Positions 4,897 through 47,802 of a DNA stretch of 64,000 nt are shown in pieces. The number at the start of each line of letters is the position of its first letter. Position 1 is the first letter of the stretch. Both the position numbers and the translations under genes were made by a program. The stretch is from Paludibacteraceae bacterium (GTDB lineage: Bacteria > Bacteroidota > Bacteroidia > Bacteroidales > Paludibacteraceae), in NCBI GenBank assembly GCA_045654945.1, contig JAZOOG010000017.1, forward strand, positions 46,066 through 110,065, in the 5' to 3' direction. Below the pieces are notes generated by a model. The model had not been told where the DNA came from. It did not search any database and saw only the letters and a list, made by a program, of their open reading frames with translations.

Positions 4897-4904
4897 AAGT
4901 TTTA

Positions 4905-5057
4905 GTTCAAAATTGTTCAATATGGTTCAAAATTGTTCAATATGGTTCAAAATTGTTCAATATGGTTCAAAATTGTTCAATGTTGTTCAAAGTGGTTCAA
5001 TGTTGAACGAGGTTGAACGCGAAGCGCTGAACAGCGACTTCAGTCGCGTTGAACAAT
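4905..5057. repeat. GTTCAA/TTGAAC array with 10-bp phasing and a GCGAAGC core, copy A (purD|folD junction)
   Basis: Ten GTTCAA units sit at exactly 10-bp spacing (4905 to 4995). Inverted TTGAAC/CTGAAC units then flank CGCGAAGCGC and a GCGAC-ttca-GTCGC hairpin. Confidence 0.9.
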
Positions 5058-8949: not shown

Positions 8950-10062
8950 TTATCTGTTGATTTCCCAGTATCCATTGCGTTTGCCATTGCGTCGTGATAT
9001 GATACCTTTATTGGTTAGATTCACCGTGAGCGTTTTTACCGTTCGCTCCGATTTGCCAATAGCTGCTGCTATTTGCTTTTGCGTAGCAGACGGGGTTTGC
9101 TGTAAGATCCGCAATACCGCTAATTCTTCTAAAGTGCAATTTTTGCACTTTGAAAGCACTACTTCGTCTTCTTTTGCACTTTGGTTTGCACTTTGAACTT
9201 GCTCATGGTCATTTGTCGCCTGCCAATCGAGATGCAGTTCTCTATTTTGTAGAGGATGATTCTCGTTTAACAACATGTTGCGGAAGAATCGCTCCAAGAA
9301 CAAAGGGTTGTAGCTAATACCTTGTAGTACATTGGTGTAGTTAGCACGCACAAGCGCGTTACGGAAGTACCATGAGTTATTGGCAAATATTTCGTTGTTT
9401 ACCTTAAACCCTAATGTCGTTAGGTATTTGATCATAAACACAGCTGTGGTGCGTGTGTTGCCTTCACCGAATGGATGGATTTGCCATATATTACTACAAA
9501 ATGTTGCGAGGTGAGCAATTGCTTCATCTACAGAAACGGAGGAATAGTTGAATGATTTTTCTTGTTCAAAATCATATTTCAACGTCTCGCTAATCATATC
9601 AGCGCCCGCGTAGTAAACGGTATCGCCGCGTAGCACCCATTCGCGTTTGGTAATGTTGTAATTGCGTATTTTACCAGCAAATTTATAAATGCCAGTAAAC
9701 AGATGTCTGTGAATAGCAATTAATTGCGAAGGGTTAAAGGCGAATGTCTTTTCTGATAGTAATTCCGCAATACGAGCAGATACCTTGTCGGCTTCTTCTG
9801 TTGCTTCGCTCTCGCTATTTTGGCGCACTTGTTGTGATTGATAGTAAGAGTCAATGAGTTCTTTCGCTTTTTGAAGCGTAATATCGCCTTCGATATGCTG
9901 TTTAGCTGTCTGCAATAGGTACGCTGAGGTATTTAAGCCATCTACTTGTTGCAATCCTATAGCAGTCTGCCATATCTGCCCACGCTCTCGTTGCATGGGT
10001 TCGCCTTGGCGGATGTACTCCTCCAGATTTGGCATACTGTGTATAGTAGGATTGTTTATCAT
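8950..10062 (-). CDS. Fic-domain protein with a C-terminal winged-helix DNA-binding domain
   Basis: Fic core motif [15 protein letters not shown]-terminal MarR-like wHTH: [58 protein letters not shown]. Confidence 0.85.
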
Positions 10063-10108
10063 TATAATCTGATTTCAGCAACTTTTTCGCGCAAATTACT
10101 TTCGGGTG

Positions 10109-10143
10109 CAAAGTTAGTTATTTTTTTGCATATATACAAGGAA
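10109..10143 (-). promoter_or_regulatory. Promoter for fic, and probably for purM-purH-purD-folD downstream
   Basis: The minus strand reads ccTTGtatatatgcaaaaaaataacTAACTTTG, about 45 nt upstream of the fic ATG. Confidence 0.55.
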
Positions 10144-10325
10144 AAGGGCAGAAAGTTTTTTGACAATCTACATTTTGTCAAATCGGGTGTGAAATTCTCT
10201 ATAAGTTTCGAGAAGAAGGAGTGCAACGGAACGCATTCCGAGCGTGAAGAAACTAATTGACTATTAGCTTCGAGTTAAGAATTGTACTAGTGTAGATTGC
10301 AAGGTGTAGAGTGTATAGACAAGGA

Positions 10326-10366
10326 TAAAAAATAGAGCATATCGGTGTGATATGCTCTATTTTTTG
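10326..10366. terminator. Bidirectional rho-independent terminator after purL
   Basis: AAAAAATAGAGCATATC ggtgt GATATGCTCTATTTTTT is a stem flanked by an A-run and a T-run, 15 nt downstream of the purL stop. Confidence 0.8.
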
Positions 10367-10380
10367 GTATATAGGTAGGA

Positions 10381-16958: not shown

Positions 16959-16993
16959 ACACTGCAAGTAGCCCGAAGGGCGTTCAATAAACA

Positions 16994-17623: not shown

Positions 17624-19213
17624 ATCACCATTTATCACGGACAAGACGGTAAAGATGGTCAAAATGGTCAAAACGGAGCAGATGGTAAAGATGGTCAAGA
17701 CGGACAAAATGGCGCCGATGGCAAAGATGGCTCTACTCCTGTGATTGGTGTGGCACAAGACACCGACGGAGTATATTATTGGACATTGAATGGCGAATGG
17801 CTATTGGATGACAATGGCAACAAACTCCCTGTTTCAGGCAAAGACGGTCAAAACGGTGCCAATGGCTCTAATGGTCAAGACGGTGCAGACGGTAAGGACG
17901 GACAAGACGGCGAAGATGGCAAAGATGGTGCTGATGGCAAAGATGGCGTAACTCCTCAGTTGAAGATTGAGGATGGCTATTGGTACATCTCTTATGACAA
18001 TGGTGCAACTTGGACACAATTAGGCAAAGCTACAGGCGAAGATGGTAAGGATGGTCAAAATGGCTCTAATGGTACAGATGGCAAGGACGGCAAAGACGGT
18101 CAAGACGGCGACTCCATGTTCCAATCTGTAACACAAGATGATGACTATGTTTACTTCACTCTTGCTGACGGTACAGTTATTAAGATTGCAAAGGGTAGCG
18201 GTAGCAATAATCAGCTAAGTAACGAAGATATCATTGTCTTCCGAGATTTGGCAGTCAAATCTGGTTTGCTCAAATTAGGGGTAGATACAACGGGTGATGG
18301 TGAAATTTCTTATGGCGAAGCTACACAATATTCGGGTACACTTTCTTTTGGAAGCAACACAAAAATCCATTCATTTAAGGAATGCCAATATTTTACTAAT
18401 GTAAAATCTTTCGCATTTGGCTACTGTTCAAATCTATTTGAAATAGATCTCCCTGAAAATATAACTAGTATTGATCCTGGCGCATTCAAGGAATGTTCTT
18501 CCTTAATTTCACTTACGATTCCAAATAGCGTAACAAAAATTGGAGATGGTGCATTTATGCGATGCTCAACACTTGTTTCAATGACACTTCCTGAAAGTGT
18601 AATTAGTATTGAATCTAATGCTTTTTATGGTTGTGTTTCTATGAAAAATATCAACATCCCTTGTAATATCACAAGCATTGGGTCTAGTGCATTTATTGGT
18701 TGTTCCAATCTTAATGTATTATACGATGCTAAAAATTGTAGCTATTCTGAGTCTTCTCAGATTTTTCCGCAGGCACTTTCAATTACACTGGGAAATAATG
18801 TAGAATATATTCCTGCATATATGTTTTATAATGATTATAGATTAGAATCTATTGATATTCCTAAAAATGTAAAATCAATCGGAACCAGGGCATTCCAATT
18901 TTCTCAGCTTGCTTCTGTTACTTTTTCAGAAGGATTAGAAACCATAGATACATATGCTTTTTCAGGAACAAACTTGACTTCAGTACAGATTCCAAGAAGT
19001 ATTAAAACTATAGGCTCATATGCATTTACTCGTGACAATTTCACAACAACAGGTCCTAGTCAGATATATTGCGAAGCGATAACTCCGCCTACAATATCTG
19101 GTGCTCCATTCAATGTAAATGCAACTATATATGTCCCACGTGCTTATGTAGAAGATTATAAAGTTGTTTGGAGTGCTTATGCTTCGCGAATTGTTGGATA
19201 TGATTTTGAATAA
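17624..19213 (+). CDS. 5'-truncated surface protein: collagen-like (G-X-Y)n region, Bacteroidales DUF4988-type module and BspA-type leucine-rich repeats
   Basis: The frame is open from the stop at 17621-17623 and begins ITIYHGQDGKDGQNG... It has no ATG and no signal or lipoprotein sequence (the track uses GTG at 17741). Later segments: GKDGQDGEDGKDGADGKDGVTPQLKIEDGYWYISYDNGATWTQLGKATGEDG, then repeated IP.SVT.IG..AF..C..L units (LRR_5/BspA-like). Confidence 0.6.
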   Translation: MTIYHGQDGKDGQNGQNGADGKDGQDGQNGADGKDGSTPVIGVAQDTDGVYYWTLNGEWLLDDNGNKLPVSGKDGQNGANGSNGQDGADGKDGQDGEDGKDGADGKDGVTPQLKIEDGYWYISYDNGATWTQLGKATGEDGKDGQNGSNGTDGKDGKDGQDGDSMFQSVTQDDDYVYFTLADGTVIKIAKGSGSNNQLSNEDIIVFRDLAVKSGLLKLGVDTTGDGEISYGEATQYSGTLSFGSNTKIHSFKECQYFTNVKSFAFGYCSNLFEIDLPENITSIDPGAFKECSSLISLTIPNSVTKIGDGAFMRCSTLVSMTLPESVISIESNAFYGCVSMKNINIPCNITSIGSSAFIGCSNLNVLYDAKNCSYSESSQIFPQALSITLGNNVEYIPAYMFYNDYRLESIDIPKNVKSIGTRAFQFSQLASVTFSEGLETIDTYAFSGTNLTSVQIPRSIKTIGSYAFTRDNFTTTGPSQIYCEAITPPTISGAPFNVNATIYVPRAYVEDYKVVWSAYASRIVGYDFE

Positions 19214-24531: not shown

Positions 24532-25800
24532 TTACTCCCACTCGATTGTTGCGGGTGGTTTTGCAGAGATATCATAGCATACGCGGTTGACACCTTGTAC
24601 CTTGTTGATAATCTCGTTAGACACCTTAGCCATGAACTCGTATGGAAGACGAGCCCAGTCAGCCGTCATAGCATCCACAGAGAGGACTGCGCGGAGAGCT
24701 ACTGGATGCTCGTAGGTACGCACATCACCCTTCATACCCGTACTACGAACGGTTGAGAGGAGGATAGCACCAGCTTGCCAAACCTTGTCGTAGAGCGCAA
24801 CGCCGTTCTCATCTTTCCACTCGCGAAGCATGTTCACATAGATAGCGTCAGCCTCTTGGAGGATGCGTACTTTCTCAGGAGTAATATCACCCAAGATACG
24901 AACACCAAGACCTGGACCTGGGAAAGGATGGCGACCGATAAGGTGCTCAGGTACACCCATATAACGACCAATACGGCGAACCTCATCCTTGAAGAGGAGC
25001 TTGAGTGGCTCGCAGAGCTTGAGGTTCATCTCTTTAGGCAGACCACCTACGTTGTGGTGAGACTTGATGACCTTACCAGAGTGGTTGATAGACTCAATGA
25101 TATCTGGGTAGATAGTACCTTGACCGAGCCATTTAGCATCGGTGATCTTCTTAGCTTCCTCATCAAATACTTGGATGAAGTCGCGGCCGATAATCTTACG
25201 TTTTTGCTCAGGGTCAGTTACGCCAGCGAGGTCGCCATAGAAGCGAGCTTTGGCGTCCACACCAATTACATTGAGACCGAGGCACTCGTAGTCGCGGAGT
25301 ACGTTTTCGAACTCGTCCTTGCGGAGCAATCCGTGATCCACGAAGATACAGGTGAGTTGGCTGCCGATAGCACGGTTGAGGAGCACAGCTGTGATAGAGC
25401 TGTCCACACCACCAGAGAGGGCCAGGATTACGCGGTCGGTACCGATTTGCTCCTTGAGCTCTGCTACGGTAGTCTCTACGAAGTTAGCAGGAGTCCAGTC
25501 TTGTGCGCTATGGCATGTGTCAAGCACGAATGGACGAAGCTCCTCTACGGTAGGTTGTTCGCCTTTAGCAATGTTGAGTACTGGGATGCAAGAGCAGAAT
25601 TGGCTGAGGGTGTTTTGGAGTACCTCAGGTTGTTCTACAGCATCCTTATCGCCCGAGAGGATAAGACCAATGATGTCTTTGTCATCCTCTGGGTATTTGT
25701 TGTAAGGAAGGACCTCGCAGAAGGTATCCAGTTCGCGCACACGGCGACCGATGACTTGGGTAGTTTCTGATCCGAGATCGAGAATAATGATTTTTTGCAT
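24532..25800 (-). CDS. guaA: GMP synthase with a truncated, catalytically degenerate glutamine-amidotransferase domain
   Basis: The ATP-PPase and dimerisation parts are intact ([42 protein letters not shown], ...KPPATIEWE). The N-terminal domain is only about 85 aa. [11 protein letters not shown] replaces the GVCYGMQ nucleophile elbow, and the His/Glu region is absent. Confidence 0.85.
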
Positions 25801-25819
25801 ATGTTCTTTGTTTTTAAAA

Positions 25820-25908
25820 GTTCAATATGGTTCAATATTGTTCAATGTGGTTCAAAGTTGTGCAATGCTGAACAATGTTGAACGCGAAGCACTGAACAAT
25901 GTTGAACA
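25820..25908. repeat. GTTCAA/TTGAAC array with 10-bp phasing, copy B (guaB|guaA junction)
   Basis: GTTCAA at 25820, 25830, 25840 and 25850, then CTGAAC/TTGAAC units around CGCGAAGCAC. Confidence 0.9.
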
Positions 25909-25922
25909 AACGGCAATGCCGC

Positions 25923-28519: not shown

Positions 28520-31438
28520 TTATTGCGATATAAGCCAGTTGATGCAGTCGGAGTAGAGGGCTGGGAAGTCCTTTACCGATTCCAACATAAATGGCAATAT
28601 AATCATTCTAGTTTTATCATCTTGGTATGCCACACCTGCATTCACATAGGTGTCGTCATAGCGAGCAATACGTACACCACCTGTCATTGGTTCAATGCCG
28701 TCTGGCCACTCACATTCAATCACTTGTGGATTAGGCTTGGTGTAGTATTCGTATTGCTTGGTCGGCAGGATATTGTATTGGAAGTTGATGCGTCCGCAGG
28801 TCGATGCCTTCTCTGTTTTGTAGCGATAGTGCAGTACGTTGTGTGTAAAGGCAGTGTCGCATGTGTGGCGCATGTCGCTGGCGATATACGAACCAGAGAG
28901 GAGTAACTTACCTCCTTGCTCTGTATATGCCTCGATTGCTTTGCGCAGATGCATAGGTATGCAGCCTATGGTATCAGTCTTCTCGCCTTTCTCCTTACCC
29001 ATAATGATATCCACAAGGGTGTATGGCGCGAGGGATTCGACTGCGTTGATAGATGATGATACATACGATATTCCCATTTGTGCCAGCGCATCGCCGTGCA
29101 TGCTTGGGTAGTCGAATGTGTTACCTATGTTCACCTCTTTCTGTTTGTCAGCATGGCACATGCCAAAACCGCAGTCGTCATCGCTCTCCCACATATTGGT
29201 GCGGTCATAGTCGAACTGCTCGCCCAGGAAACTAATCTCCTTGCCGTAGGATACGGCATACGAGCCAGGTACAACACCACCTGTGATGCTATCAATGCCG
29301 AACATTTCAGGTGCATCCACACGGTGGAAGCCATTGATGATGAGCGCGAGCTTGTTGTTGTATTGAGGGGCGATATAGGCGCTCAGCACTTCGCTGGGCA
29401 GACTGACACCACCGTTATTTCCTGCACGCACCATGAAGTCGTACTTCACGCCACGTTGAATAGGCAGGGTGGCATTAGCATCGCTTACGCGGATACCATT
29501 ATCCCAGTCGGAAGTTTGCCATTGGCCATCTTTGAGTTGGCTCGTGCGCGTGTATACAATATAGTAGGTTGGGGTGGCAGTTGGCTCGAGGCGATCTACG
29601 CGTTCTGCCCAACGGATATGCAAACTATCGTTGTCAGCATAACTGATGTTCATTTGCTGCACAGGCAATGGTTGAACCACGTATGGAGTACCCGTTGTCT
29701 GGTGAATGAAGCGGAGCATACCTTTGTAGATAGCACGGCTGACAATGAACTTGAACTTAGGATCCAATCCGAAGGTCATGTCATAGTAGTTGTGGTGGCT
29801 AAGCAATTCAATGATGGTGGATGGCACTTTCGGATTGCGCGTCTCGGACATTGACTTATGCATGAGGTGGCGTTTTTGCCATGTTGGCATCATGGTTTGA
29901 CGAATGTCCTCTACGATTTGCGTTTGGAGATAGTCCGCAAAGTCGCGATTACAAATGCGGTCACCGCCCGAAGGATAGGTGGTCTCTTGGTCATCGTCTT
30001 TGATGGTGTAAAACATAAATGTACCCACGAGTTTGTCGGTAGGATGGCAACCTGCATCGCTGTGGAAAGCGACACTCATGTTGACAGGTATATTGAGTCC
30101 TGGACCCTCTGGATAGGCAGCACTACCACCTGCAAGGTAGTTCACCCAACGTCCGCGACAGCTGAAGTCGTCGGTGTAGTCATTCTTGCTACCTGTATAG
30201 TTATAGACGCTGTCAGGGATACCCGCATACTGCAACCAATAGCGTGCGCCTTCGATATAACGAGGATAACCACTGGTGGTGGCAAATGCTTGGTTTGCAA
30301 TATGCAATGTGGAATCGGTGACAACTTCTTGTGAGTGGGTATCTTTCTTGGTGTAGAAATCATCGTCGCCAATCTCTGGGTGAGGGTAGCGAGCCACCGA
30401 ACCCCAACCGCCACCAAATTTGATAGCATCGGTCGTGGTTATCTGTTTGCCTTTATGCGTAAGGGTCACATAGTTGCTATTCGCATCGGTGCCAAAGTCA
30501 AAGGTGCCGAGGTATATCCATGTGCCGCCACCCATTTGTTGGTTGACATGATAGGTGGTGCTGATGCCTTTGTGCACCACGGTGTATTCGGCTTGTGGGT
30601 TGCTCTTAGGCAGAGATTTGTAGCTCACATATACGGCATACTCGCCCGCTTCGGGGAGCTTCGGGGTATATTGGGCAGTACTCTTGACTGTGCTATAGCC
30701 ACCCATAGCAAATGGATTGTCGCCTTCGAGCAATGGTTTCAGAGGTCGTCCCCAACCTGTGCCTTCGGCGGGTGTGATACCAGTGGCAAGTTGCGAGTCG
30801 TCCACGATCACCTCGTGCAATTGCGTATCGCGCTCACGCGGCTGAAGTACTACAGCACCTGCGTTCTCAAGCATAGGCACGAGGAAAGGCATGGTGTAAC
30901 TGCTGGTGTAGAGGTCTTCGATGGTCGTCCAAAGGCGTGCGCGTTGCCATTTCCACATGCGATATGCCTGCACGTAGTAGATACCATGGCTACCCCATAA
31001 GGCGATATGCTTGCCGTCTAATCCCTGTTTCGCAGAGTAGGGTTGCGAGGCATTGTGCACCAATGGATACTTGGCACTGGCAGGTTTGTATTGCAATTTC
31101 TTATCGCGTTTGCGGTATAGGGCGGTCACCCATTCGTCCAGTTCTTTGCCGTCCGAGATAATTTGCACCTCGGCTGTAGGCGCACCGCCTACCCATTGAC
31201 GAACCGACTCTTTGAGCCCTGCAATCTCCTCTGGAGTGAGTGAGATACAAGACAATCGGTTGCAGGTGGTGATGGTGATATTCTTCTCATCTATTTGAAT
31301 ATCACTGACTTTAACCTTACCTAAATAAGCGCGTTGGCTGGCGAAGACATTGAGTGAGTCCGCCAATTCTTGGGGGGTGATTGCAAAAGTCATTGTCGCA
31401 CAAAGCGCAGCAATGGCTAAGAAGAATGACTTTTTCAT
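28520..31438 (-). CDS. Secreted 972-aa multidomain protein: amidase_3-like fold interrupted by a golvesin-like beta-sandwich, plus C-terminal domains
   Basis: Signal MKKSFFLAIAALCATMTFA. EYAVYVSYKSLP...YTVVHKGISTTYHVNQQMGGGTWIYLGTFDF resembles the golvesin C-terminal-like domain. AFHSDAG and ELLSHHN resemble MurNAc-LAA-type motifs. Proteins of this kind are often annotated xanthan lyase. This assignment is from memory only. Confidence 0.4.
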   Translation of the reverse strand: MKKSFFLAIAALCATMTFAITPQELADSLNVFASQRAYLGKVKVSDIQIDEKNITITTCNRLSCISLTPEEIAGLKESVRQWVGGAPTAEVQIISDGKELDEWVTALYRKRDKKLQYKPASAKYPLVHNASQPYSAKQGLDGKHIALWGSHGIYYVQAYRMWKWQRARLWTTIEDLYTSSYTMPFLVPMLENAGAVVLQPRERDTQLHEVIVDDSQLATGITPAEGTGWGRPLKPLLEGDNPFAMGGYSTVKSTAQYTPKLPEAGEYAVYVSYKSLPKSNPQAEYTVVHKGISTTYHVNQQMGGGTWIYLGTFDFGTDANSNYVTLTHKGKQITTTDAIKFGGGWGSVARYPHPEIGDDDFYTKKDTHSQEVVTDSTLHIANQAFATTSGYPRYIEGARYWLQYAGIPDSVYNYTGSKNDYTDDFSCRGRWVNYLAGGSAAYPEGPGLNIPVNMSVAFHSDAGCHPTDKLVGTFMFYTIKDDDQETTYPSGGDRICNRDFADYLQTQIVEDIRQTMMPTWQKRHLMHKSMSETRNPKVPSTIIELLSHHNYYDMTFGLDPKFKFIVSRAIYKGMLRFIHQTTGTPYVVQPLPVQQMNISYADNDSLHIRWAERVDRLEPTATPTYYIVYTRTSQLKDGQWQTSDWDNGIRVSDANATLPIQRGVKYDFMVRAGNNGGVSLPSEVLSAYIAPQYNNKLALIINGFHRVDAPEMFGIDSITGGVVPGSYAVSYGKEISFLGEQFDYDRTNMWESDDDCGFGMCHADKQKEVNIGNTFDYPSMHGDALAQMGISYVSSSINAVESLAPYTLVDIIMGKEKGEKTDTIGCIPMHLRKAIEAYTEQGGKLLLSGSYIASDMRHTCDTAFTHNVLHYRYKTEKASTCGRINFQYNILPTKQYEYYTKPNPQVIECEWPDGIEPMTGGVRIARYDDTYVNAGVAYQDDKTRMIILPFMLESVKDFPALYSDCINWLISQ

Positions 31439-31440
31439 AT

Positions 31441-31492
31441 CCTTGCCTTTAAATCCTTACCTTTAACCTATAACCTTTAACCTTTAGCCTAA
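31441..31492. repeat. Heptamer array, CTCGCCT/TTAACCT family (R1)
   Basis: ccttgcctttaaatccttacctttaacctataacctttaacctttagcct fills the whole pyrE-to-972-aa-gene spacer. Confidence 0.85.
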
Positions 31493-32124: not shown

Positions 32125-32139
32125 ATTGTTAGTTTTTTA

Positions 32140-32230
32140 GTTCAAAATTGTTCAACATTGTTCAATGTGGTTCAACATTGTTACAATACTGAACGCGAAG
32201 CGCTGAACAATACTGAACTATGTTGAACTA
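32140..32230. repeat. GTTCAA/TTGAAC array with 10-bp phasing, copy C (pyrF|pyrE junction)
   Basis: GTTCAA at 32140, 32150, 32160 and 32170, then CTGAAC units around CGCGAAGCGC. Confidence 0.9.
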
Positions 32231-32939: not shown

Positions 32940-33855
32940 GATTTACTATTCCTATTATATCTGTGAGTTTATCTATTTTCAGTTCATCCATAAGGGCTGG
33001 CAAACGATCTACAATCTCTTTTGCCACCATTGGGTTGGTGAGGTTAGCTGCGCCAATCTCCACGGCTGTCGCGCCTGCCATCATCATCTCTATCACATCT
33101 TCTGCGCTGCTCACGCCACCGCAACCGATGATAGGCAAGTTGATCGCGCGTGCCACTTGGTTCACCATGCGGAGGGCGAGTGGGAAGATGCCCGAACCCG
33201 AATAACCACCATATCGGTTGGCTATCACAGGACGGCGGCGACGAATGTCGATGCGCATACCCAGCACGGTATTGATGAGGCACAATCCATCTGCTCCCGC
33301 AGCTTCGCATGCTTTGGCAATGGCTACGATGTCCGTCACATTAGGCGACAGCTTCATATATACAGGTTTGGTAGTCACCGCCTTAACGGCTGCTGTCACT
33401 TCAGATGCTGCCTCAGGACTGGTACCAAATGCCATACCTCCGTTGTGCACATTAGGGCATGAGATATTCACCTCGAGGATGTCGATAGGTTCTTTGTCTA
33501 GTAAGGCGCAAGTCTCTACATAGTCTTGCACAGAGAAACCGCTGACATTTGCCACAATACAGCCGTTGTAGTGGCTCTTGAGGCGAGGCAACTCGTGGGC
33601 AATGACATGTTCCACACCAGGGTTTTGCAAGCCCACTGCGTTGATCATACCGTAGTTGCCGCACTCAGCAATACGAGGCAATGGGTTGCCGTAGCGTGCC
33701 TCGCGGGTGGTGCCTTTGAAGGATATACCGCCCAGACAGTTGATATCGTATAACTCAGCAAACTCATCGCCAAAACCATAGGTTCCCGATGCTGGGATGA
33801 TCGGATTGGCGAGGGTGATGCCAGAGAGGGATATTTGTAGTTTGTTGTGTAGCAT
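32932..33855 (-). CDS. pyrD: Dihydroorotate dehydrogenase, class 1B catalytic subunit
   Basis: [36 protein letters not shown]. The start is set at ATG 33855 ([10 protein letters not shown]). The track's 70-aa Arg-rich extension overlaps pyrK and looks spurious. Confidence 0.9.
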
Positions 33856-33878
33856 TGTGTAGTGTTGTGTAGAGTTGT

Positions 33879-34652
33879 TTAGAGTTGTAGGATTTCTGCG
33901 GGGAATACGGGGCCTTCTTTGCACACGCGTTTGGGTCCTTTCGTTGTTTGTATCGTGCAGCCCATGCATGCGCCGAAGCCGCATCCCATACGCTCCTCCA
34001 TGCTCACTTCGCCATGGGTACCAACGGCTTGCAGTAGTGCTTTGATCATGGGCAATGGTCCGCAAGTGTAGTAGTAGGATTGTTGTCCGTCCAGAGCGTT
34101 AGTCACAAAGCCCTTCACGCCATGACTGCCGTCCACGGTGGTGACAGTCACATCGCAACCCAAGGCACGAAACTCCTCCTCGTAGAAGACTTCCTCCTTG
34201 GTGTTGAAGCCGAGGATCACGCGCACCTTTTTGCCTGCTTTGCGAAGTTGGCGAGCCAGCATGTACATAGGAGGTACGCCTACGCCACCGCCGACCAGCA
34301 AGGGTGCGTCGCCTGCTTTGCTCAGGTCATAGCCGTTACCGAGAACAGTGAGAACATCCAGTTGGGTGCCGATTGGCAGTTGGCTCATAGCCTCGGTGCC
34401 TACGCCCACTACCTTATATATAATGGTGAGCACACCTCTCGCCTCTCGCCTCTCGCCTCTAACCTCTAACCTCTCGCCTTTCGCCTCACTAATATCGCAT
34501 ACCGAGATGGGGCGGCGGAGGAATTGACCTTGCACGCGGATATTCACGAACTGCCCAGGCAGTATGCCCGCAGTATCGCCTCCAAGCTGCATGCGATAGA
34601 CATTCTTGGCTATCTGTTCGTTGGATTGTATTTCAAATAATCTTTGCTTCAT
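33879..34652 (-). CDS. pyrK: Dihydroorotate dehydrogenase electron-transfer subunit
   Basis: RRPISV, GGGVGVPPM, and the C-terminal 2Fe-2S motif CGFGACMGC. It carries the in-frame repeat insert KGERLEVRGERREARG. Confidence 0.9.
   Translation of the reverse strand: MKQRLFEIQSNEQIAKNVYRMQLGGDTAGILPGQFVNIRVQGQFLRRPISVCDISEAKGERLEVRGERREARGVLTIIYKVVGVGTEAMSQLPIGTQLDVLTVLGNGYDLSKAGDAPLLVGGGVGVPPMYMLARQLRKAGKKVRVILGFNTKEEVFYEEEFRALGCDVTVTTVDGSHGVKGFVTNALDGQQSYYYTCGPLPMIKALLQAVGTHGEVSMEERMGCGFGACMGCTIQTTKGPKRVCKEGPVFPAEILQL
34434..34490. repeat. R1 heptamer array inside the pyrK coding sequence
   Basis: ctctcgcctctcgcctctcgcctctaacctctaacctctcgcctttcgcc. Its reverse complement translates in the pyrK frame to AKGERLEVRGERREARGV. 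Confidence 0.9.
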
Positions 34653-34684
34653 AATTCTTGCCTTTCGCCTTTAACTTTTCGCCT

Positions 34685-35812
34685 TTAACCTTGCACATTA
34701 TATACTGTTATTCCGTTGACGATGGTTTTGACGCACTTGCCATATACTTCCCATCCTTCAAACGGCATCGCTTGTCCCATGGAAAGGAAGTTCGCTGGAT
34801 CAATCTTGTAGCACGCATCTAAATCGAAGTAGGCAAATGAACCCGTATTGTCCAAACCGATAATACGAGCAGGATTGGTGGACATGAGTTCGATAAGACG
34901 CTCAAAAGTGATGATACCCGTCTTCACAAAATGCGTGTACATCAGCGGGAAAGCCGTTTCCAGTCCCACGATACCAAACGCACTTTTCTCCAATCCACGG
35001 CTCTTCTCCTCAGCGCTATGAGGCGCGTGGTCGGTGGCGATACAGTCTATAGTGCCATCTTTGATGCCCTCGATGAGCGCGAGGCGGTCTTCCTCAGCAC
35101 GCAGCGGTGGGTTCATCTTCCACTTGCCATCCTCTTGCAGGTCATTGTCGGTCAGCAGCAAATAGTGAGGTGCAGTCTCGCAAGTCACAGGCAGTCCTTT
35201 GGCTTTGGCCTCACGGATAAGCGCTACACTCTCCTTGGTGGAGATATGGCATATATGAAAACGACACCCTGTCTCTTCTACCAGACGGATGTCGCGTTCT
35301 ATCTCTTGCCACTCGCTCTCAGACACGATGCCACGGTGATTGTGTTTTTTTGCATACTCACCTGCGTGGATATAGCCGCCATTGAGTAGCGCCTCTACTT
35401 CGCAGTGAGCCACCATCACACGATCTACCGCACGAATTTGTTTCATCGCCTCGCGCATCAGTTCTTCGCTTTGCACGCCGCGACCGTCATCAGAGAACCC
35501 TTTGACGTATGGCGCCAATGCCTCAAAATCAACGAGTTCGCCTGCACCTTTCTGCCCCATGGTAATCGATGCAAACGGATAGACGCCTGTGTAGGTGTCG
35601 CGTTTGATAATGTCCAACTGCTCTTGCAGATGCTCTACGGTGTCTGGCACCGGATTGAGGTTAGGCATGGTGAATACTGCGCTGTAGCCAGATGCAGCTG
35701 CTGCCATACTACCCGAAGCAATAGTCTCTTTATACGAAAAACCCGGCTCACGAAAGTGGACATGCAGGTCCACAAGAGCCGGAATCTGTACTATGTTGCG
35801 TGGAATCGCCAT
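34685..35812 (-). CDS. pyrC: Dihydroorotase
   Basis: DLHVHFREPG, amidohydrolase fold. The start is set at ATG 35812 because the track start (TTG at 35842) overlaps the -7 promoter box. The last Gly codon and the stop lie in an R1 repeat unit (TTAACCT). Confidence 0.88.
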   Translation of the reverse strand: MAIPRNIVQIPALVDLHVHFREPGFSYKETIASGSMAAAASGYSAVFTMPNLNPVPDTVEHLQEQLDIIKRDTYTGVYPFASITMGQKGAGELVDFEALAPYVKGFSDDGRGVQSEELMREAMKQIRAVDRVMVAHCEVEALLNGGYIHAGEYAKKHNHRGIVSESEWQEIERDIRLVEETGCRFHICHISTKESVALIREAKAKGLPVTCETAPHYLLLTDNDLQEDGKWKMNPPLRAEEDRLALIEGIKDGTIDCIATDHAPHSAEEKSRGLEKSAFGIVGLETAFPLMYTHFVKTGIITFERLIELMSTNPARIIGLDNTGSFAYFDLDACYKIDPANFLSMGQAMPFEGWEVYGKCVKTIVNGITVYNVQG

Positions 35813-35927: not shown

Positions 35928-35982
35928 CCACCCATCGCCTATAACCAATAGCCCATCGCCCATACCCAATCGCCTATACCAA
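35928..35982. repeat. Heptamer array, GGCTATT/GGCGATG family (R4), reverse orientation
   Basis: cacccatcgcctataaccaatagcccatcgcccatacccaatcgcctatacc, spanning the hemW stop. Confidence 0.8.
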
Positions 35983-37062
35983 CTCCTCGATGATGCGATT
36001 CAGTATATGAAAACCTTTAGTTGTGGCAACTACGCGTGTGCCTACTTCTTTCAGCAATCCCTGTTGGATATACGCTTGTGCTTTGTGGCTGTCAATATCC
36101 TCCATGGCTACACCCCTATTGGTGCGCAGCCCTAACATCACGCGCTCAGTATGTCGCTGTTCATCAGTCAGCCATTCTGTTTCGGGCTGCAACTGATGCC
36201 CCATAGCTTGTGCTATATAGCTATCAAGATCGCTGATATTCCAACTCCTGACCTGTCCATCGTAGCTATGTGCCCCTGCGCCCAAACCGATATAGGGCGT
36301 GTTGTTCCAGTAACTGGAGTTGTGTTGCGATTCGCGATTCGGCAGCGCAAAATTGCTCACCTCATAATGGATATACCCCTGTGCCGTCAGCTCTGCCACG
36401 ATATAGTCATACATCTGCATCTCCGTATCTTCGTCCACTGCTTCTATCACACCGTGGTCGAGCAATGTCGTCAGTGCGGTGCCTTCCTCGTATATCAGTC
36501 CGTAGGTGGATATATGTTGCACGCCCAACTGCAGTGCCTCAGCCACATCCTTCTTCCACATCTCCATCGTCTGCGAGGGCAGGGCATACATCAGGTCAAT
36601 GGATATATTGTCAAATCCCGCTGCTTGTGCTGTCGCCACTGCTCTGCGGGCTTGCTCGGCGTTGTGCCGTCTGCCTATGAGTTGCAGCAGCTCGTCATGA
36701 AAGCTCTGTATGCCTATGCTCAACCGATTGATACCCATCTCTCGCCACGCGCGAACTTTCTCTTCGGTTATATCCCCCGGATTGGCTTCCAATGTAATTT
36801 CTTGCCTCTCGCCTCTCGCCTCTCGCCTAATAGCCTCAACGATAGTTTGCAGGTCTTCCACCTGCAACGTACTGGGCGTACCACCACCTATATATATAGT
36901 GGATATTGGGTATTGGCTATTGGATATGGGTAGTCGGTCCTGCATTTCCATGAGCAGTGCCTGCACGTACTGCGATTGTTTCTCCAAATGTGTAGTGGAA
37001 AAAAAATCGCAGTACTTGCACCGACTCTTGCAAAATGGTATATGTATATATATCCCTGCCAA
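35974..37062 (-). CDS. hemW: Radical SAM HemW/HemN-family protein (heme chaperone / coproporphyrinogen oxidase-like)
   Basis: IYIHIPFCKSRCKYCDF is the CxxxCxxC radical SAM motif, with a HemN_C-like tail. Only a TTG start (37062) is available. The in-frame upstream ATG at 37107 runs into a stop. It contains the repeat-derived inserts LPISNSQYPIST and REARGERQE. Confidence 0.85.
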   Translation of the reverse strand: MAGIYIHIPFCKSRCKYCDFFSTTHLEKQSQYVQALLMEMQDRLPISNSQYPISTIYIGGGTPSTLQVEDLQTIVEAIRREARGERQEITLEANPGDITEEKVRAWREMGINRLSIGIQSFHDELLQLIGRRHNAEQARRAVATAQAAGFDNISIDLMYALPSQTMEMWKKDVAEALQLGVQHISTYGLIYEEGTALTTLLDHGVIEAVDEDTEMQMYDYIVAELTAQGYIHYEVSNFALPNRESQHNSSYWNNTPYIGLGAGAHSYDGQVRSWNISDLDSYIAQAMGHQLQPETEWLTDEQRHTERVMLGLRTNRGVAMEDIDSHKAQAYIQQGLLKEVGTRVVATTKGFHILNRIIEELV

Positions 37063-37065
37063 CTT

Positions 37066-37190
37066 CTTGCCTCTAACCTCTCGCCTTTAACCTCTCGCCT
37101 TTTGCATGCAGCTTTGCCGCTATCCGTGCCTCTACACTCTACACTCTACACCCTACACTCTACACCCTACACCCTACACTCTACACTCTA
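37066..37190. repeat. Composite element: R1 array, conserved core GCAGCTTTGCCGCTATCCGTGCC, then CTACACT (R2) array
   Basis: cctctaacctctcgcctttaacctctcgcc, ttttgcatgcagctttgccgctatccgtgcc, then (ctacact/ctacacc) x ~9. It fills the serine-hydrolase|hemW spacer. Confidence 0.9.
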
Positions 37191-38355: not shown

Positions 38356-38382
38356 ATATATTACTTTTAAAGTTAATTCGTG

Positions 38383-38432
38383 CCTCTCGCCTTTCGCCTT
38401 TAACCTCTCGCCTCTAACCTCTCTCCTCTCCC
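38383..38432. repeat. R1 heptamer array overlapping the rarA 3' end
   Basis: gcctctcgcctttcgcctttaacctctcgcctctaacctctctcctctcccc. The last residues of rarA (..WGEERG*) are encoded in it. Confidence 0.85.
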
Positions 38433-39724
38433 CACAGATACCTCATCCACTCCGCCATTTTCTGTTCTTGCGGGCTGCCTTGCGCCTGCCAGAGTCGTGT
38501 GCCTTGCAGCGCATCGGGCATGAACTGTTGTTTGACAAAGTGGTTCGGATAGTCGTGCGCATACTTATATCCCTCGCCGTATCCCAACTCGTCCATGAGC
38601 TTCGTGGGCGCATTGCGCAGATGCAATGGCACTGGCAGGTTGCCTGTCTTCTCCACCAACTCCAGTGCCTGATTGATTGCTAAATATGCGGAGTTGGATT
38701 TCTGCGAAGTGGCGAGATACACTGTCGCCATCGCCAGCGGTATGCGTCCTTCGGGCCAACCTATTTTCTGCAATGTGTCGAAGCATGCGTTGGCCACCAA
38801 CATCGCATTGGGGTTCGCCAACCCTATATCTTCGCTCGCGGAGATCACCAAACGGCGGGCTATAAATTTCGGGTCTTCGCCTGCGGCTACCATGCGTGCC
38901 AACCAGTACAGTGCTGCATCGGGGTCGCTGCCGCGGATCGACTTGATAAACGCGGAGATGATGTCATAATGCAGTTCACCGTCCTTATCGTATGCCACGG
39001 GGTTCTGCTGCAGCTGCTTGGTGACGGTCTCGTTGTCCAGTATTTTGACCCCTGCATTGGTGACCAATTCCACGATGTTGAGCAGTTTGCGTGCATCGCC
39101 ACCCGAATAGCGTAGTATGCTTTCTGTCTCGCGCAGTTCGATATGCATACTGCGGATATACGCATCTTCGGTCAGTGCGCGTTGCAGCAGTTCCAGCAGG
39201 TCCTCTTTCTCCAATGACTTCAGCACATACACTTGACAGCGACTCAGCAGTGGTGTAATAACCTCAAACGATGGGTTCTCTGTGGTAGCACCTATCAGGG
39301 TGATAGTTCCATCTTCTACTGCGCCTAATAGACTGTCTTGCTGCGACTTAGAGAAACGGTGAATCTCATCGATAAACAATATCGCTCGCCCGACTCCCGA
39401 TTCCCGATTCCCGATACCCGATTCCCGATCTCCAAACAACCCTCTATCCATCGCCGCAAATCGTTTCGCTTTATCGATCACCTCACGCACTTCTTTCACA
39501 CCGCTGGTAACGGCGCTGAGGGTGTAGAACGGACGTTCCAACTGGTGTGCGATGATGCGTGCCAGTGTGGTCTTGCCCACGCCTGGAGGCCCCCAAAGGA
39601 TAAAGGACGACAGACTGCCGTTCTCTATCATCTGTCGTAGGACGGCTCCTTCGCCTACCAGGTGCTTTTGTCCTATGTATTCATTGAGCGTCTTCGGACG
39701 CAATCGCTCTGCTAATGGCAACAT
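38414..39724 (-). CDS. rarA: Replication-associated recombination protein A (MgsA/RarA AAA+ ATPase)
   Basis: LWGPPGVGKTTLA, FIDEIHRFSKSQQD, MgsA C-terminal domain. It contains the in-frame insert GDRESGIGNRESGVGR from a CGGGAAT heptamer array. Confidence 0.92.
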   Translation of the reverse strand: MLPLAERLRPKTLNEYIGQKHLVGEGAVLRQMIENGSLSSFILWGPPGVGKTTLARIIAHQLERPFYTLSAVTSGVKEVREVIDKAKRFAAMDRGLFGDRESGIGNRESGVGRAILFIDEIHRFSKSQQDSLLGAVEDGTITLIGATTENPSFEVITPLLSRCQVYVLKSLEKEDLLELLQRALTEDAYIRSMHIELRETESILRYSGGDARKLLNIVELVTNAGVKILDNETVTKQLQQNPVAYDKDGELHYDIISAFIKSIRGSDPDAALYWLARMVAAGEDPKFIARRLVISASEDIGLANPNAMLVANACFDTLQKIGWPEGRIPLAMATVYLATSQKSNSAYLAINQALELVEKTGNLPVPLHLRNAPTKLMDELGYGEGYKYAHDYPNHFVKQQFMPDALQGTRLWQAQGSPQEQKMAEWMRYLWGEERG

Positions 39725-39725: not shown

Positions 39726-39880
39726 TGTTTTTAGTTTTTAGTTTTAAGTGTAGAGTGTAGGGTGTAGAGTGTAATGGCTGGTAATATGCGGCTTTGCCGC
39801 TATTCGTGCCTTTAACCTTTCGCCTTTAACCTTTCGCCTTTAACCTCTCGCCTTTAACCTCATCGCCTCCTCGCCTATAT
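39726..39880. repeat. Composite element: TAGTTTT and AGTGTAG (R2, reverse) arrays, core GCGGCTTTGCCGCTATTCGTGCC, then R1 array
   Basis: tgtttttagtttttagttttaagtgtagagtgtagggtgtagagtgta, atggctggtaatatgcggctttgccgctattcgtgcc, then tttaacctttcgcctttaacctttcgcctttaacctctcgcctttaacctcatcgcctcctcgcc. It fills the recN|rarA spacer and reaches the recN stop. Confidence 0.9.
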
Positions 39881-41506
39881 CCTCCTCATTTTCTCTATCT
39901 CCTCCTCATGCTCTTCAGCGCTCAGTTCGCGGATATGTGTTTCGGTGCGGACCTCTGTATCCTCTTTATATACTAAGTAGTGGTGTTCGCCTTTCGTGGC
40001 CACCTGTGGCAGGTGGGTGATGCTTATCACCTGACGCGAGACGGCCATCTGCCGCATGATCTCACCCATCTGACTGGCTATCGCTCCGCTCACACCTGTG
40101 TCTATTTCGTCAAAGATAATCGTCGGTAGTCCGTTATTGCGGGCTATTAACGCTTTGATACACAGCATCAGTCGGCTGATCTCACCGCCCGATGCCACTT
40201 CCGCTACGCGACGTAGCGATTGGTTCAGGTTCGCAGCGAACATAAACTGCACATTGTCTTTTCCCGTCTCTTGGTACTCTTCTGTGGGCTGAATCTCCAC
40301 GGCTACTTTAGCGTGCGCTACACCCAATCCCTGCATATCCTTCACCAACTGCTCTGCTATTGTCTGTGTCACTGCTTGGCGCGACTGCGTCAGCTGGCTC
40401 GCCTCTTCGCTCAGTCTCTCCAGGGCCTGCTCCGCTTGCGCTTGCAGTTTCTCCAGTTCCTCGTCCATATTCTCCAATCGTTGCACCTGTGTCTCTAATT
40501 CGTCGCGCAATGCTATCAGTTCCTCCACAGTCTGCACATGGTGTTTCTTCATCAGCGTCTGCAGCATACTCAGTCGCTCCTGCACCTGCTCCAGGCGCAT
40601 AGGGTCGATCTCTGTGCGATCGTACTGGCGTTGGATATCCGATACTATATCTTTCAACTCAATCTCTACACTGCTGAGACGCTCTTCTATCTCCGATGCC
40701 CGATTTCCTATACCCGACCTACTGGCATGTATGAGCGACAATGCGCCCTGATCGCTATCCAATTGCTGTAGGGCAGTCGCGAGGGCAGACTGTATCTCTT
40801 CGGCATGTGCCAAACGATACTCCTCTTCTTCCAATGCCTCCATCTCGCCTGCCATCAGCTGAGCTTCTGCCAACTGATGGTATTGCCATTGCATATAGTC
40901 CGCATCCGTCTGCGCTTTCTTGGCCATTGCTTGTGCTTCGCGCAGACTGGTCATTGCTGCCTGATAGGAGGTGTACGCTTCGTTATATGCCTCGCGCTCG
41001 GCTCCGTTGCCTGCTATCGCATCCACCACTGCTATCTGAAACAGGTCATCGCCTATCATCAGACTCTCGTGCTGCGAATGGATGTCTATGAGTTGGCGAG
41101 CCAATGCTTTCAGCTCCGTTTGCGTCACCACCTCGTCGTTCACGAACGACCGCGAACGTCCATTCTGATTAAGTTCCCTACGGATAATTACCTCTCGCCT
41201 CTCGCCTCTCGCCTCATCACCTTTAGCCTTTAGCCTCTCGCCTTTCGCCTCCTCGCCTTTAGCCTCTCGCCTCTCGCCTCTCGCCTCATCGCCTTTTGCC
41301 TCAAACGTCGCCTCTATCACGCATCGCTCCTCACCTTCGGTGATGCTCTTGCTGTCGGCGCGAGCGCCCATCACCAAGTTCAGCGCACCCAGTATGATGC
41401 TCTTACCGGCACCCGTCTCACCCGTCATAACGGAGAATCCCTCACGGAAATCAATGTCCAAATGAGAGATAAGTGCGTAGTTGCGTATGTGTAGATGACT
41501 TAGCAT
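39875..41506 (-). CDS. recN: DNA repair protein RecN
   Basis: MLSHLHIRNYALI..., Walker A GETGAGKS, SMC-like coiled coil, C-terminal SGGE signature. The start is set at ATG 41506, downstream of the -7 box. It has a ~37-aa repeat-encoded insert: EAKGDEARGERREAKGEEAKGERLKAKGDEARGERRE. Confidence 0.92.
   Translation of the reverse strand: MLSHLHIRNYALISHLDIDFREGFSVMTGETGAGKSIILGALNLVMGARADSKSITEGEERCVIEATFEAKGDEARGERREAKGEEAKGERLKAKGDEARGERREVIIRRELNQNGRSRSFVNDEVVTQTELKALARQLIDIHSQHESLMIGDDLFQIAVVDAIAGNGAEREAYNEAYTSYQAAMTSLREAQAMAKKAQTDADYMQWQYHQLAEAQLMAGEMEALEEEEYRLAHAEEIQSALATALQQLDSDQGALSLIHASRSGIGNRASEIEERLSSVEIELKDIVSDIQRQYDRTEIDPMRLEQVQERLSMLQTLMKKHHVQTVEELIALRDELETQVQRLENMDEELEKLQAQAEQALERLSEEASQLTQSRQAVTQTIAEQLVKDMQGLGVAHAKVAVEIQPTEEYQETGKDNVQFMFAANLNQSLRRVAEVASGGEISRLMLCIKALIARNNGLPTIIFDEIDTGVSGAIASQMGEIMRQMAVSRQVISITHLPQVATKGEHHYLVYKEDTEVRTETHIRELSAEEHEEEIEKMRRI
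41190..41300. repeat. R1 heptamer array of about 110 bp inside the recN coding sequence
   Basis: cctctcgcctctcgcctctcgcctcatcacctttagcctttagcctctcgcctttcgcctcctcgcctttagcctctcgcctctcgcctctcgcctcatcgcc. Confidence 0.9.
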
Positions 41507-43748: not shown

Positions 43749-43782
43749 GATTAAGCGGTTGAGCGCAGCGTTATTCGGGGAT

Positions 43783-44040
43783 TTTTTTATATTTTTGTAG
43801 CGAAGCGTATTTTGTATGAAAAGATAATTGATTTTAATTGTCTCTCAAGTTGTCTAAGTTGTCTGATAAATAATCATTTTTGTTTTGGGTTGCCAGCGAC
43901 GTGTCGCTCTTCCAACCCAAACAAAAAATCCCCCTTGAATTGACAATAATTAACACCTTAATTGACGTCTATTGTCTTAAAAACATAACCTGTTATTTAT
44001 ATATATTTTTGTAGCGAAGCGTATTTTTGTATTAAAAAAA
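43783..44040 (+). repeat. Intergenic cassette of about 260 bp, copy A (promoter-like module, hairpin, promoter-like module)
   Basis: Near-identical to 46110-46376. It starts and ends with ATATTTTTGTAG-CGAAGC-GTATTTTTGTAT. It contains AGTTGTCT x3 and the extended hairpin TTTTTGTTTTGGGTTG...CAACCCAAACAAAAAA (43877-43927). Confidence 0.85.
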
Positions 44041-44056: not shown

Positions 44057-44884
44057 ATGCTTTCACTTGTCACAGGCGCCTCATCGGGCATTGGCCTCCA
44101 ATACGCCACCCAGCTTGCGCGCGATTACCATACCGACCTCTTGCTGGTCAGCAACCAGCAGCAGGAGCTTCAGCAGGTAGCCACCGAATTGGCTGCTCAA
44201 TACGGTGTTCGTACGATTCCGCTCTACGCGGACCTCTCCCAGCCAGACGCTGCGGAGCGCTTGCACCAGTATTGTCTGGACAACCACCTCGTGGTGGATA
44301 TCCTCATCAACAATGCGGGTGTCTTTTTCTTCAATCCCTATTGCGAGACCTCGATGAAGCGTATCGAGTTGATTCTCAACCTCCATATGATCACCGTGGC
44401 TAAACTCTGCCGCTTGTTTGGCGAGCAGATGATCCATCGCCAGTTGACTGCCGACGAGCAGTCGCAGACTATCTGTGGCAAGGCGCGCCAGAAGGGTTAT
44501 ATCCTCAATATGTCTTCCATGTCTGCATGGATGGCTATGCCGGGTATCCAGTCTTATAATGCTACCAAGGCTTTCATCTACAATTTCTCCAAGTCCTTGT
44601 GGTACGAACTGCGCCCTAAGGGTGTGTCTATCACTGTCATGACACCGGGTGCGGTAGATACGGCGCTATTTGGTCTCGCGCCTCATCTGCGCCGTCTGGC
44701 GGTAGCCTTGACGGTCTCTATCCCGCCGGAGAAACTGGTCAAGCGTGCATTGCGTAAGATGTTCCGTGGCAAGAAGGCTGATATGCCGGGTGTCATCAAC
44801 TGGCTGGCGACTCCATTGCTCAAGCACACCCCGGACTGGCTGGTGTTCTTGGTGATGAAGTTCATCGGCAAATACCAAAAATAA
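44057..44884 (+). CDS. Short-chain dehydrogenase/reductase (candidate hydroxysteroid dehydrogenase)
   Basis: TGASSGIG, NNAG and S...YNATK are the classical SDR motifs. Confidence 0.85.
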   Translation: MLSLVTGASSGIGLQYATQLARDYHTDLLLVSNQQQELQQVATELAAQYGVRTIPLYADLSQPDAAERLHQYCLDNHLVVDILINNAGVFFFNPYCETSMKRIELILNLHMITVAKLCRLFGEQMIHRQLTADEQSQTICGKARQKGYILNMSSMSAWMAMPGIQSYNATKAFIYNFSKSLWYELRPKGVSITVMTPGAVDTALFGLAPHLRRLAVALTVSIPPEKLVKRALRKMFRGKKADMPGVINWLATPLLKHTPDWLVFLVMKFIGKYQK

Positions 44885-47788: not shown

Positions 47789-47802
47789 CAGCGTCAATTC
47801 AA

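Follow-up and report, generated by a model that had tools for sequence, protein, structure and literature searches.

GTTCAA/TTGAAC Tandem-Repeat Palindromes at Operon Junctions of Gut Paludibacteraceae: Generic, Replaceable Spacers Rather Than a Dedicated Nucleotide-Synthesis Switch

Three Arrays in a Nucleotide-Biosynthesis Supercluster

The 64,000-nucleotide stretch of Paludibacteraceae DNA analyzed here (the 64-kb window; contig JAZOOG010000017.1) contains a nucleotide-biosynthesis supercluster consisting of purE-purL-(Fic/HTH gene)-purM-purH-purD-(copy A)-folD and pyrC-pyrK-pyrD-pyrF-(copy C)-pyrE-(gene for a 972-aa Golvesin_C protein)-pyrB-guaB-(copy B)-guaA. Copies A, B, and C, located at the purD|folD, guaB|guaA, and pyrF|pyrE junctions, respectively, are exactly the GTTCAA/TTGAAC array loci of the window, and the genes around them (NCBIfam) lie on the minus strand. 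The motif GTTCAAN4GTTCAA occurs 16 times in the window (0.00 expected), and a scan for three phased GTTCAA units with up to three mismatches gives 20 matches (0.06 expected), all at these three loci. An earlier note on this DNA described three copies with one architecture (ten units in A; four plus one degenerate unit in B and C), each array ending 8–19 nt short of the downstream start codon; the sequence confirms this, and the measured distances are 8, 19, and 15 nt for A, B, and C, respectively. The parts of the three copies are as follows.

Copy A, 4897–4904, minus strand: tail of 8 nt, A/U-rich, between the last unit and the folD ATG (4896–4894)
Copy A, 4905–5000, minus strand: direct array of ten 10-nt units in exact 10-bp steps (mRNA unit UUGAAC + 4 nt); in the predicted fold, the 3′ arm and a spare single-stranded leader
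Copy A, 5003–5054, minus strand: inverted block, the mRNA 5′ arm, with four GUUCAR units split by two GC-rich mini-hairpins
Copy A, 5019–5026 and 5033–5048: the mini-hairpins, GCGAAGCG and the 16-nt palindrome AGCGACTTCAGTCGCG, respectively
Copy B, 25801–25819, minus strand: tail of 19 nt, A-rich, preceding the guaA ATG (25800–25798)
Copy B, 25820–25865, minus strand: direct array of four exact units and one degenerate unit (GTGCAA)
Copy B, 25868–25907, minus strand: inverted block, CTGAAC-AATG-TTGAAC-GCGAAGCA-CTGAAC-AATG-TTGAAC
Copy B, 25910–25922, minus strand: first mini-hairpin, immediately past the guaB stop codon (mRNA GCGGC-AUU-GCCGU)
Copy C, 32125–32139, minus strand: tail of 15 nt, A-rich, preceding the pyrE ATG (32124–32122)
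Copy C, 32140–32185, minus strand: direct array of four exact units and one degenerate unit (GTTACA)
Copy C, 32189–32228, minus strand: inverted block, CTGAAC-GCGAAGCG-CTGAAC-AATA-CTGAAC-TATG-TTGAAC

The direct array of copy A includes four perfect 20-nt double units, which shows that it was amplified recently. Read on the plus strand, this array is followed by TTGAAC, TTGAAC, GCGAAGCG, CTGAAC, AGCGACTTCAGTCGCG, and TTGAAC, ending at 5054, and on the transcript the inverted block starts 4 nt past the purD stop codon (5061–5059). In copies B and C, YTGAAC units flank GCGAAGC(A/G). The GCGAAGC core to which the earlier note drew attention is present in all copies, but it lies on the plus strand, which is the template, so that the mRNA has GCUUCGC; the heptamer is also enriched throughout the window generally (26 occurrences; 7.6 expected). 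Likewise, the 10-bp phasing holds within the direct array but not across the mini-hairpins, where the steps are 14 and 22 bp. The 6-nt repeats and 4-nt spacers differ from those of CRISPR arrays, in which repeats of 23–50 nt alternate with unique spacers of similar length.

Occurrence and Gene Contexts in Relatives

A scan of one genome per species for three phased GTTCAA units finds at least 116 loci, and 20 among the 116 matches listed are in metagenome-assembled genomes (MAGs) of gut or rumen Paludibacteraceae. One of these MAGs, JAZNJI01, is 88–90% identical to the window in DNA sequence and has an ortholog of copy A with six units rather than ten. A metagenome scan with the core TGAACGCGAAGCRCTGAAC gives 35 matches, about a dozen of them with the full architecture. 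Three copies are present in the 64 kb of the window and several in contigs of a relative MAG (L027, L045, and L090; contigs compared with the window are given L numbers), all of them extragenic. Exact-protein look-ups with FolD, PurD, and PurH of the window give no match.

In relatives, the same architecture (genes assigned by Pfam) is found at purA|carA (L027), between the genes for a frdC-like membrane protein and the FrdA fumarate-reductase flavoprotein, between two Rnf subunit genes, at both junctions of the oxaloacetate decarboxylase (OAD) genes (OAD gamma|biotin carrier|OAD beta), and at obg|ClC, POT transporter gene|neighbor, glgB-like|nagB, DUF4494|YggS-like, and GT2|DUF4922. Of 24 distinct junctions, 22 have YTGAAC on the sense strand and an array that ends 1–36 nt before an ATG, as determined by simple calling of open reading frames (ORFs). 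The 19–20-nt core (TGAACGCGAAGCRCTGAAC) is identical at no fewer than ten unrelated junctions, and the frd and obg copies have 28-nt identical stretches. The best reading is that the GTTCAA/TTGAAC elements are a lineage-specific family of intercistronic tandem-repeat palindromes of gut Paludibacteraceae (Bacteroidales). Because unrelated gene pairs flank it in relatives, the element is a general intercistronic repeat and not a device of nucleotide genes.

GTTCAA arrays paired with TTGAAC arrays (8–10-nt period) also occur between genes of Nitrospirota, Binatia, Deltaproteobacteria, Acidobacteriota, and an unclassified groundwater bacterium (genome contigs L016, L034, L047, L050, L051, L101, and L113). 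Viral contigs (L184–L303) contain at least 120 stretches with three phased GTTCAA units, compared with 31–45 for three composition-matched hexamers, a count inflated by redundant contigs.

The Same Junctions in Different Lineages

Comparison of orthologous junctions indicates that the spacers are exchanged while the genes are retained. In contigs whose PyrE protein is identical to that of the window, coding sequences are 91–92% identical, and the pyrF|pyrE junction carries the element (window and L154), AATTCAW heptamers, TAAACTSA octamers (L155, L158, and L160), or ACAAC-type repeats; in L152, a single degenerate unit remains at the ‘empty’ site. Alleles of guaB|guaA among contigs with identical GuaA include the element of the window, ACTAGnnnA nonamers, and inverted GCCAAGA/TCTTTGC arrays (L163 and L156), and in L166 and L170 the junction has one GTTCAA unit with six or four TTGAAC units. 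At the guaB|guaA junction of L171 (2354–2500), the same architecture is made from the 7-nt unit GTTCTAA/TTAGAAC, both arms having changed, and its three GC mini-hairpins are different ones. Among sister lineages whose PyrE or GuaA is identical, these junctions thus carry unrelated tandem repeats with units of 5–9 nt, and structure is kept while sequence changes (L171; L163 and L156).

Spacing at purD|folD varies between a 4-nt overlap and 165 nt. In a lineage whose FolD is 98% identical, an unrelated AT-rich spacer of 142 nt separates the genes; a pig-gut species has 49 nt of stable, non-repetitive sequence there; and two other relatives have an ATGA overlap or a 2-nt gap. L052 has heptamers at pyrF|pyrE and a close homolog of copy C at pyrE|pyrB. 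Such tight or varied junctions indicate that the element was inserted into, or expanded within, junctions that were once tight, and that these can do without it.

The earlier note had suggested that the element could be a shared control device for purine, pyrimidine, or folate genes. A regulatory element dedicated to nucleotide or folate synthesis, which uncouples the distal gene in response to a purine or pyrimidine signal, would account for the presence of the three window copies and those at purA|carA (L027) and pyrE|pyrB (L052) in the nucleotide-biosynthesis supercluster, and pattern scans alone place nucleotide genes at about 3 of 13 junctions. This proposal is very improbable and is contradicted by the comparative data. 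Most element-bearing junctions (including those of frd, rnf, OAD, obg|ClC, POT, and glgB-like|nagB) are unrelated to nucleotides, and unrelated spacers replace the element at the same junctions despite identical PyrE or GuaA or 98% identical FolD, purD and folD overlapping or abutting in relatives. There is no riboswitch or other match in Rfam 15 at gathering score in the whole window, and none that is relevant at E ≤ 1 over the three elements. Moreover, any intercistronic repeat here is expected between nucleotide genes, as the window is a nucleotide gene cluster; location in a functionally coherent cluster is by itself no ground for giving repeats a regulatory meaning. The three window arrays are therefore generic, replaceable operon spacers and not a dedicated nucleotide-synthesis switch. 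An operator of the PurR/PurBox type, considered for its resemblance to CGAAC, was rejected because the element is present at non-nucleotide junctions.

The cooperative protein-binding array on one helical face that the earlier note had envisaged is weakened as well. In this proposal, 10-bp-phased hexamers bind a transcription factor or nucleoid protein at the DNA level and possibly serve as an internal operator or promoter of the distal gene. The exact 10-bp period of the direct array, the conservation of the spacers, the presence of GTTCAA-N4 arrays in unrelated phyla, and their frequency in viral contigs (at least three to four times that of matched hexamers, a ratio raised by redundant contigs) are consistent with it. 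However, the mini-hairpins interrupt the phase, the orientation of the units follows the strand of the downstream gene, the motif is missing at the same junction in sister lineages, other lineages have 8- to 11-bp periods, and inspection by eye finds no conserved match to the Bacteroidota −7 box TAnnTTTG in the elements; we consider binding of this kind improbable. Phase breaks, absence in sister lineages, and intercistronic position also set the arrays apart from phased operators of the OmpR/PhoB type. A promoter was considered for near-matches to the −7 box (cAatTTTG) in A and C, none being present in B, and was rejected by eye. The RbpB motif of B. thetaiotaomicron (GUAGGAUA; bioRxiv 10.1101/2021.04.27.441718) is unrelated to UUGAAC.

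Folding and Mini-hairpins

The mRNA strands of copies B and C each fold into one long hairpin of −35.2 kcal/mol (z-scores of −4.0 and −4.3, respectively), and that of copy A folds at −31.4 kcal/mol (z −2.7) and can pair in many alternative registers, since its 5′ arm has four units and its 3′ arm ten. Z-scores of alleles were obtained with mononucleotide shuffles. The arms are asymmetric (4 units facing 4–10) and the mini-hairpins are on one arm only. The 33 long inter-unit spacers include 12 with a perfect stem of 4 bp or longer (shuffling predicts 1.3 and reaches 5 at most) and a further 12 that are the 8-nt GCGAAGCG-type core. The first hairpin past the guaB stop codon covaries, being GCGGC/GCCGU in the window, GCAGC-GGA-GCUGU in L166, and GCGGC-AAA-GCCGC in L171. 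The earlier note had suggested that the mRNA could form a long hairpin, and the folding z-scores support this.

The sense strand of the element is A/C-rich and G-poor, and sense-specific G·U pairs are confined to the mini-hairpins and GUUCAG units. Long spacer alleles are mostly of hairpin types, and the sense strand is G-poor and A-rich in every allele. An intrinsic terminator was rejected: there is no U tract, and on the mRNA strand further repeat units and then the A-rich tail come after the main hairpin. Past the first mini-hairpin of copy B there is only UUUGUU.

Conservation and Unit Slippage

Orthologous elements that have been retained are 93–99% identical, compared with 51–90% at flanking third-codon positions.

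Copy A, window and L117: 115 of 117 aligned nt identical; flanking third-codon identity 0.77
Copy A, window and L045: 113 of 121; 0.67
Copy C, window and L154: 107 of 113; 0.71–0.83
frd copy, L119 and L125: 123 of 124; 0.51–0.90
POT copy, L133 and L135: 106 of 108; 0.64

These data show that the element is not neutral when present and is under purifying constraint. Most differences between orthologous copies are insertions or deletions (indels) in steps of whole units (10 or 20 nt). In L166 and L170 the flanks are identical over the 300 nt compared per side, and one 20-nt indel distinguishes the two, which shows ongoing slippage.

Tandem repeats are a general property of the non-coding DNA of the window, which makes up 12.8% of its length and contains 26 of 44 tandem-repeat arrays, a density about ten times higher than in coding DNA; nearly every other junction has its own 7- to 11-nt repeat (heptamers such as GCCTTTA, CCTCTCG, and CTCTACA, and some 10–11-mers). 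The elements could accordingly be a neutral by-product of lineage-wide generation of short tandem repeats in non-coding DNA, filtered solely by selection against sequences that harm translation, a possibility with which the wholesale replacement of spacers between sister lineages and the polymorphism of unit number between contigs with identical flanks also agree. It is nonetheless unlikely, being contradicted by the constraint on retained elements; in addition, the architecture recurs with different units, both arms having changed in L171, and mini-hairpins are far above chance frequency.

Proposed Role

In the 30 nt upstream of 30 genes of the window, A accounts for 46% and G for 14%, and a Shine-Dalgarno-like motif is present in 4 of the 30. 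Ribosomes of Bacteroidia disregard Shine-Dalgarno sequences, and what tunes initiation is mRNA structure together with upstream adenines (PMC6847099, PMC7797042); the A-rich, Shine-Dalgarno-poor upstream regions of the window fit such ribosomes. With moderate confidence, we consider the best explanation as a whole to be a repeat-built intercistronic element that would act as generic operon punctuation in a Shine-Dalgarno-independent host.

Each copy sits at a junction that is tight or overlapping in other relatives. The element probably originated by slippage-type amplification of a 10-nt unit (the hexamer and 4 nt, often as a 20-nt double unit), to which an inverted block of the same unit would have been added, with GC-rich mini-hairpins as some of its spacers. 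The element would be transcribed within the operon mRNA, where the inverted block, 4–15 nt past the upstream stop codon, may pair with the first array units into a closed stem-loop domain that carries side hairpins. The units left over, together with the A-rich tail, would remain a G-poor, weakly structured leader ending 8–19 nt before the next AUG. The stem-loop may shield the upstream cistron at its 3′ end, or mark that end, and also keep a long insertion compact, and the repeat leader may support fresh, Shine-Dalgarno-independent initiation of the next cistron. The expression ratio of the two cistrons may shift as units are gained or lost, and the element would not itself sense purines, pyrimidines, or folate.

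Several observations weigh against operon punctuation. In 18 of 19 elements, the fold of the antisense strand is more stable than that of the sense strand; the overall pairing therefore lacks a sense-strand wobble signature and gives no support for a sense RNA. Short alleles (32–63 nt) at the same junctions fold at about 0 kcal/mol, which indicates that the hairpin is dispensable, and L172 has an unstructured 142-nt spacer. Conservation at nearly every position, including the 4-nt spacers, exceeds the needs of a generic spacer and could instead come from a sequence-specific partner or from copying between loci. The identical 19–20-nt core at many unrelated junctions implies dispersal, for which operon punctuation does not account. 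Stabilization, processing, and effects on initiation are roles that we infer.

Dispersal is the basis of the view that the element is a selfish hairpin, copied in trans (by a RAYT/Y1-transposase-like or other activity) or by ectopic gene conversion, which folds back, does little harm, and has no host function. We regard this as rather unlikely. Besides the shared core and the 28-nt identity of the frd and obg copies, it would explain why in L052 the homolog of copy C is found across pyrE, at pyrE|pyrB, with heptamers at pyrF|pyrE, and why presence and absence vary between sister lineages; long vertical persistence is known for REPIN-RAYT systems (PMC3116915, PMC8049555). However, no transposase or RAYT (Y1) gene was found among the scanned genes of the 64-kb window, and the elements have neither a conserved terminal motif nor a target-site duplication. 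The number and order of units and the spacers vary among copies, as local slippage predicts, the single degenerate unit at the ‘empty’ site of L152 fits local growth or decay better than insertion, and the strong orientation bias relative to transcription is left unexplained.

A broader form of the operon-punctuation reading can be put forward tentatively. At one and the same junction, three or more different units build this stop-to-AUG architecture, and it may be the architecture rather than the sequence that is maintained: a stop codon, units with GC mini-hairpins, a longer complementary array, an A-rich tail, and an AUG. The elements would then belong to an undescribed class of operon punctuation in Shine-Dalgarno-independent Bacteroidota that replaces coupling by stop/start overlap, with unit number as a heritable tuning knob for cistron ratios. 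As a variant, a novel copying or hairpin-inserting activity might write the modules, as GCGAAGCG between TATTTTTGTA copies at three sites of the window might suggest.

If operon punctuation is correct, a gut Bacteroidales lineage remodels the spacers of essential biosynthetic operons much faster than the genes, and each repeat hairpin, once present, is kept nearly unchanged. The alleles would constitute a natural series for asking how intercistronic structure and leader composition set the output of neighboring cistrons without Shine-Dalgarno pairing, and whether small repeat palindromes in operons are host tools or tolerated passengers.

Relation to Known Systems

The best reading is of a lineage-specific element that is REP/BIME-like but built from tandem repeats; literature searches for the motif or element found no description. 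Repetitive extragenic palindromic (REP) sequences and bacterial interspersed mosaic elements (BIMEs) of Enterobacteria and Pseudomonads have an mRNA-stabilizing role. REP sequences are imperfect palindromes of about 20–40 nt, and a RAYT, encoded by a single-copy gene, recognizes their conserved 5′ tetranucleotide head (GTAG-type). The fallback offered in the earlier note, a REP/BIME-like element with a preference for operon junctions, is close to the evidence, except that the REP head motif and symmetric modules are lacking. Like REP/BIME/REPIN sequences (PMC3116915, PMC3337134), the elements are extragenic and occur in more than one copy (three in 64 kb here; tens to hundreds per genome for REP/BIME/REPIN sequences), lie past stop codons between co-directional genes, contain inverted modules that give a long hairpin with smaller ones, are dispersed with a common conserved core, and persist vertically. 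They differ in being made of 6+4-nt tandem units (GTTCAR/YTGAAC hexamers), the number of which changes by slippage, in having no GTAG-type head at their ends, in their asymmetric arms with mini-hairpins opposite the longer array (compared with two near-symmetric inverted modules), in the lack of a cognate RAYT among the scanned window genes, and in their orientation, with the array abutting the downstream start codon.

The TAACTGA heptamers of Beggiatoaceae, Cyanobacteria, and some Bacteroidetes and the cyanobacterial short tandemly repeated repetitive (STRR) sequences (PMC4679880) are likewise short intergenic tandem direct repeats in ‘forward’ orientation a few nucleotides upstream of start codons, and their downstream genes have no functional bias. 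Further likenesses are whole-unit indels between strains, several repeat types per genome, and stop codons in all three frames, provided here by the UGA of UUGAAC and the 10-nt period. The elements occupy the corresponding position, in one orientation (22 of 24 junctions) and 1–36 nt from the ATG (8–19 nt in the window), and Paludibacter is among the listed hosts of TAACTGA-type repeats (PMC4679880). The unit is, however, 10 nt (UUGAAC + 4) rather than 7 nt, and here the inverted block gives a stable hairpin with GC-rich mini-hairpins between units.

The heptamer d(GCGAAGC) forms an extraordinarily stable DNA mini-hairpin (PMC13037366) and is, exactly, the core of the three window copies and of many relatives; in the elements, however, it is on the template strand (mRNA GCUUCGC) and has no link to a replication origin. 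GCAAAGC variants and unrelated GC stems with different loops replace GCGAAGC, which indicates that the general feature is a small GC hairpin and not the heptamer.

Intercistronic stem-loops (malEFG REP, puf, and pap) set segmental mRNA stability in polycistronic operons. A stable hairpin directly past the end of a cistron, with A/U-rich single-stranded RNA beyond it, is the mode of action that we propose here; whereas those stem-loops are single-locus, non-repetitive, and experimentally supported, the elements of the window are dispersed repeats with a putative role.

Other Repeats and Genes of the Window

Repeats at other junctions of the window, with sense units TAAAGGY, GAGAGGY, TGTAGAG, ATAATTC, TAAGGTT, and a 10-mer, are at the following positions.

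31439–31490
33844–33888
34663–34689
35931–35974
37061–37190
38382–38430
39727–39868
44881–44916
60287–60317

Heptamer arrays of the intergenic type (e.g., CCTCTCG × 15.6) also lie within the long ORFs called for recN, pyrK, and others (41190–41302, 34434–34487, 36800–36828, and 39389–39429), which means that the repeats are translated unless the start codons have been set wrongly.

Five copies of a module in which TATTTTTGTA flanks a central sequence on both sides are located at 43781–43825, 43995–44039, 46110–46154, 46332–46376, and 47660–47704. The center is GCGAAGCG in three copies and GGCACAAAGTGCCG in two, so that the same GC mini-hairpin GCGAAGCG is also found between direct repeats of a different unit, and each TATTTTTGTA half fits the Bacteroidota −7 promoter box TAnnTTTG. 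Two module copies bound a 129-nt repeat (43810–43938 and 46140–46268, 96% identical) upstream of sugar-nucleotide genes. A 1.3-kb non-coding stretch (47319–48655) contains several 10–11-nt tandem arrays, with GTTCAG units directly past the upstream stop codon (47346–47373) and a remnant, GTTCAGAGCGAAGCG, at 48560–48574. Just past the htpG stop codon and before a terminator-like hairpin, a lone GC mini-hairpin with one unit (AGCCCGAAGGGCGTTCAA, 16970–16987) may be a seed or remnant of the element.

Two apparently foreign genes lie within the biosynthetic operons. The Fic/winged-helix gene of the pur operon (8950–10062) is preceded on the transcript, on the purL side, by a 318-nt spacer (10063–10380), and the gene for the 972-aa Golvesin_C protein between pyrE and pyrB (28520–31438) is absent in L052, L156, and L159. 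The guaA gene (24532–25800) encodes only 422 aa and matches positions 180–512 of the GMP synthase model; its product seems to lack the usual glutamine amidotransferase domain at the N terminus. A 9/36-nt repeat at 17637–17730, with the coding periodicity of collagen-like GKDGQNG, is located upstream or at the start of a BspA-type leucine-rich-repeat gene.

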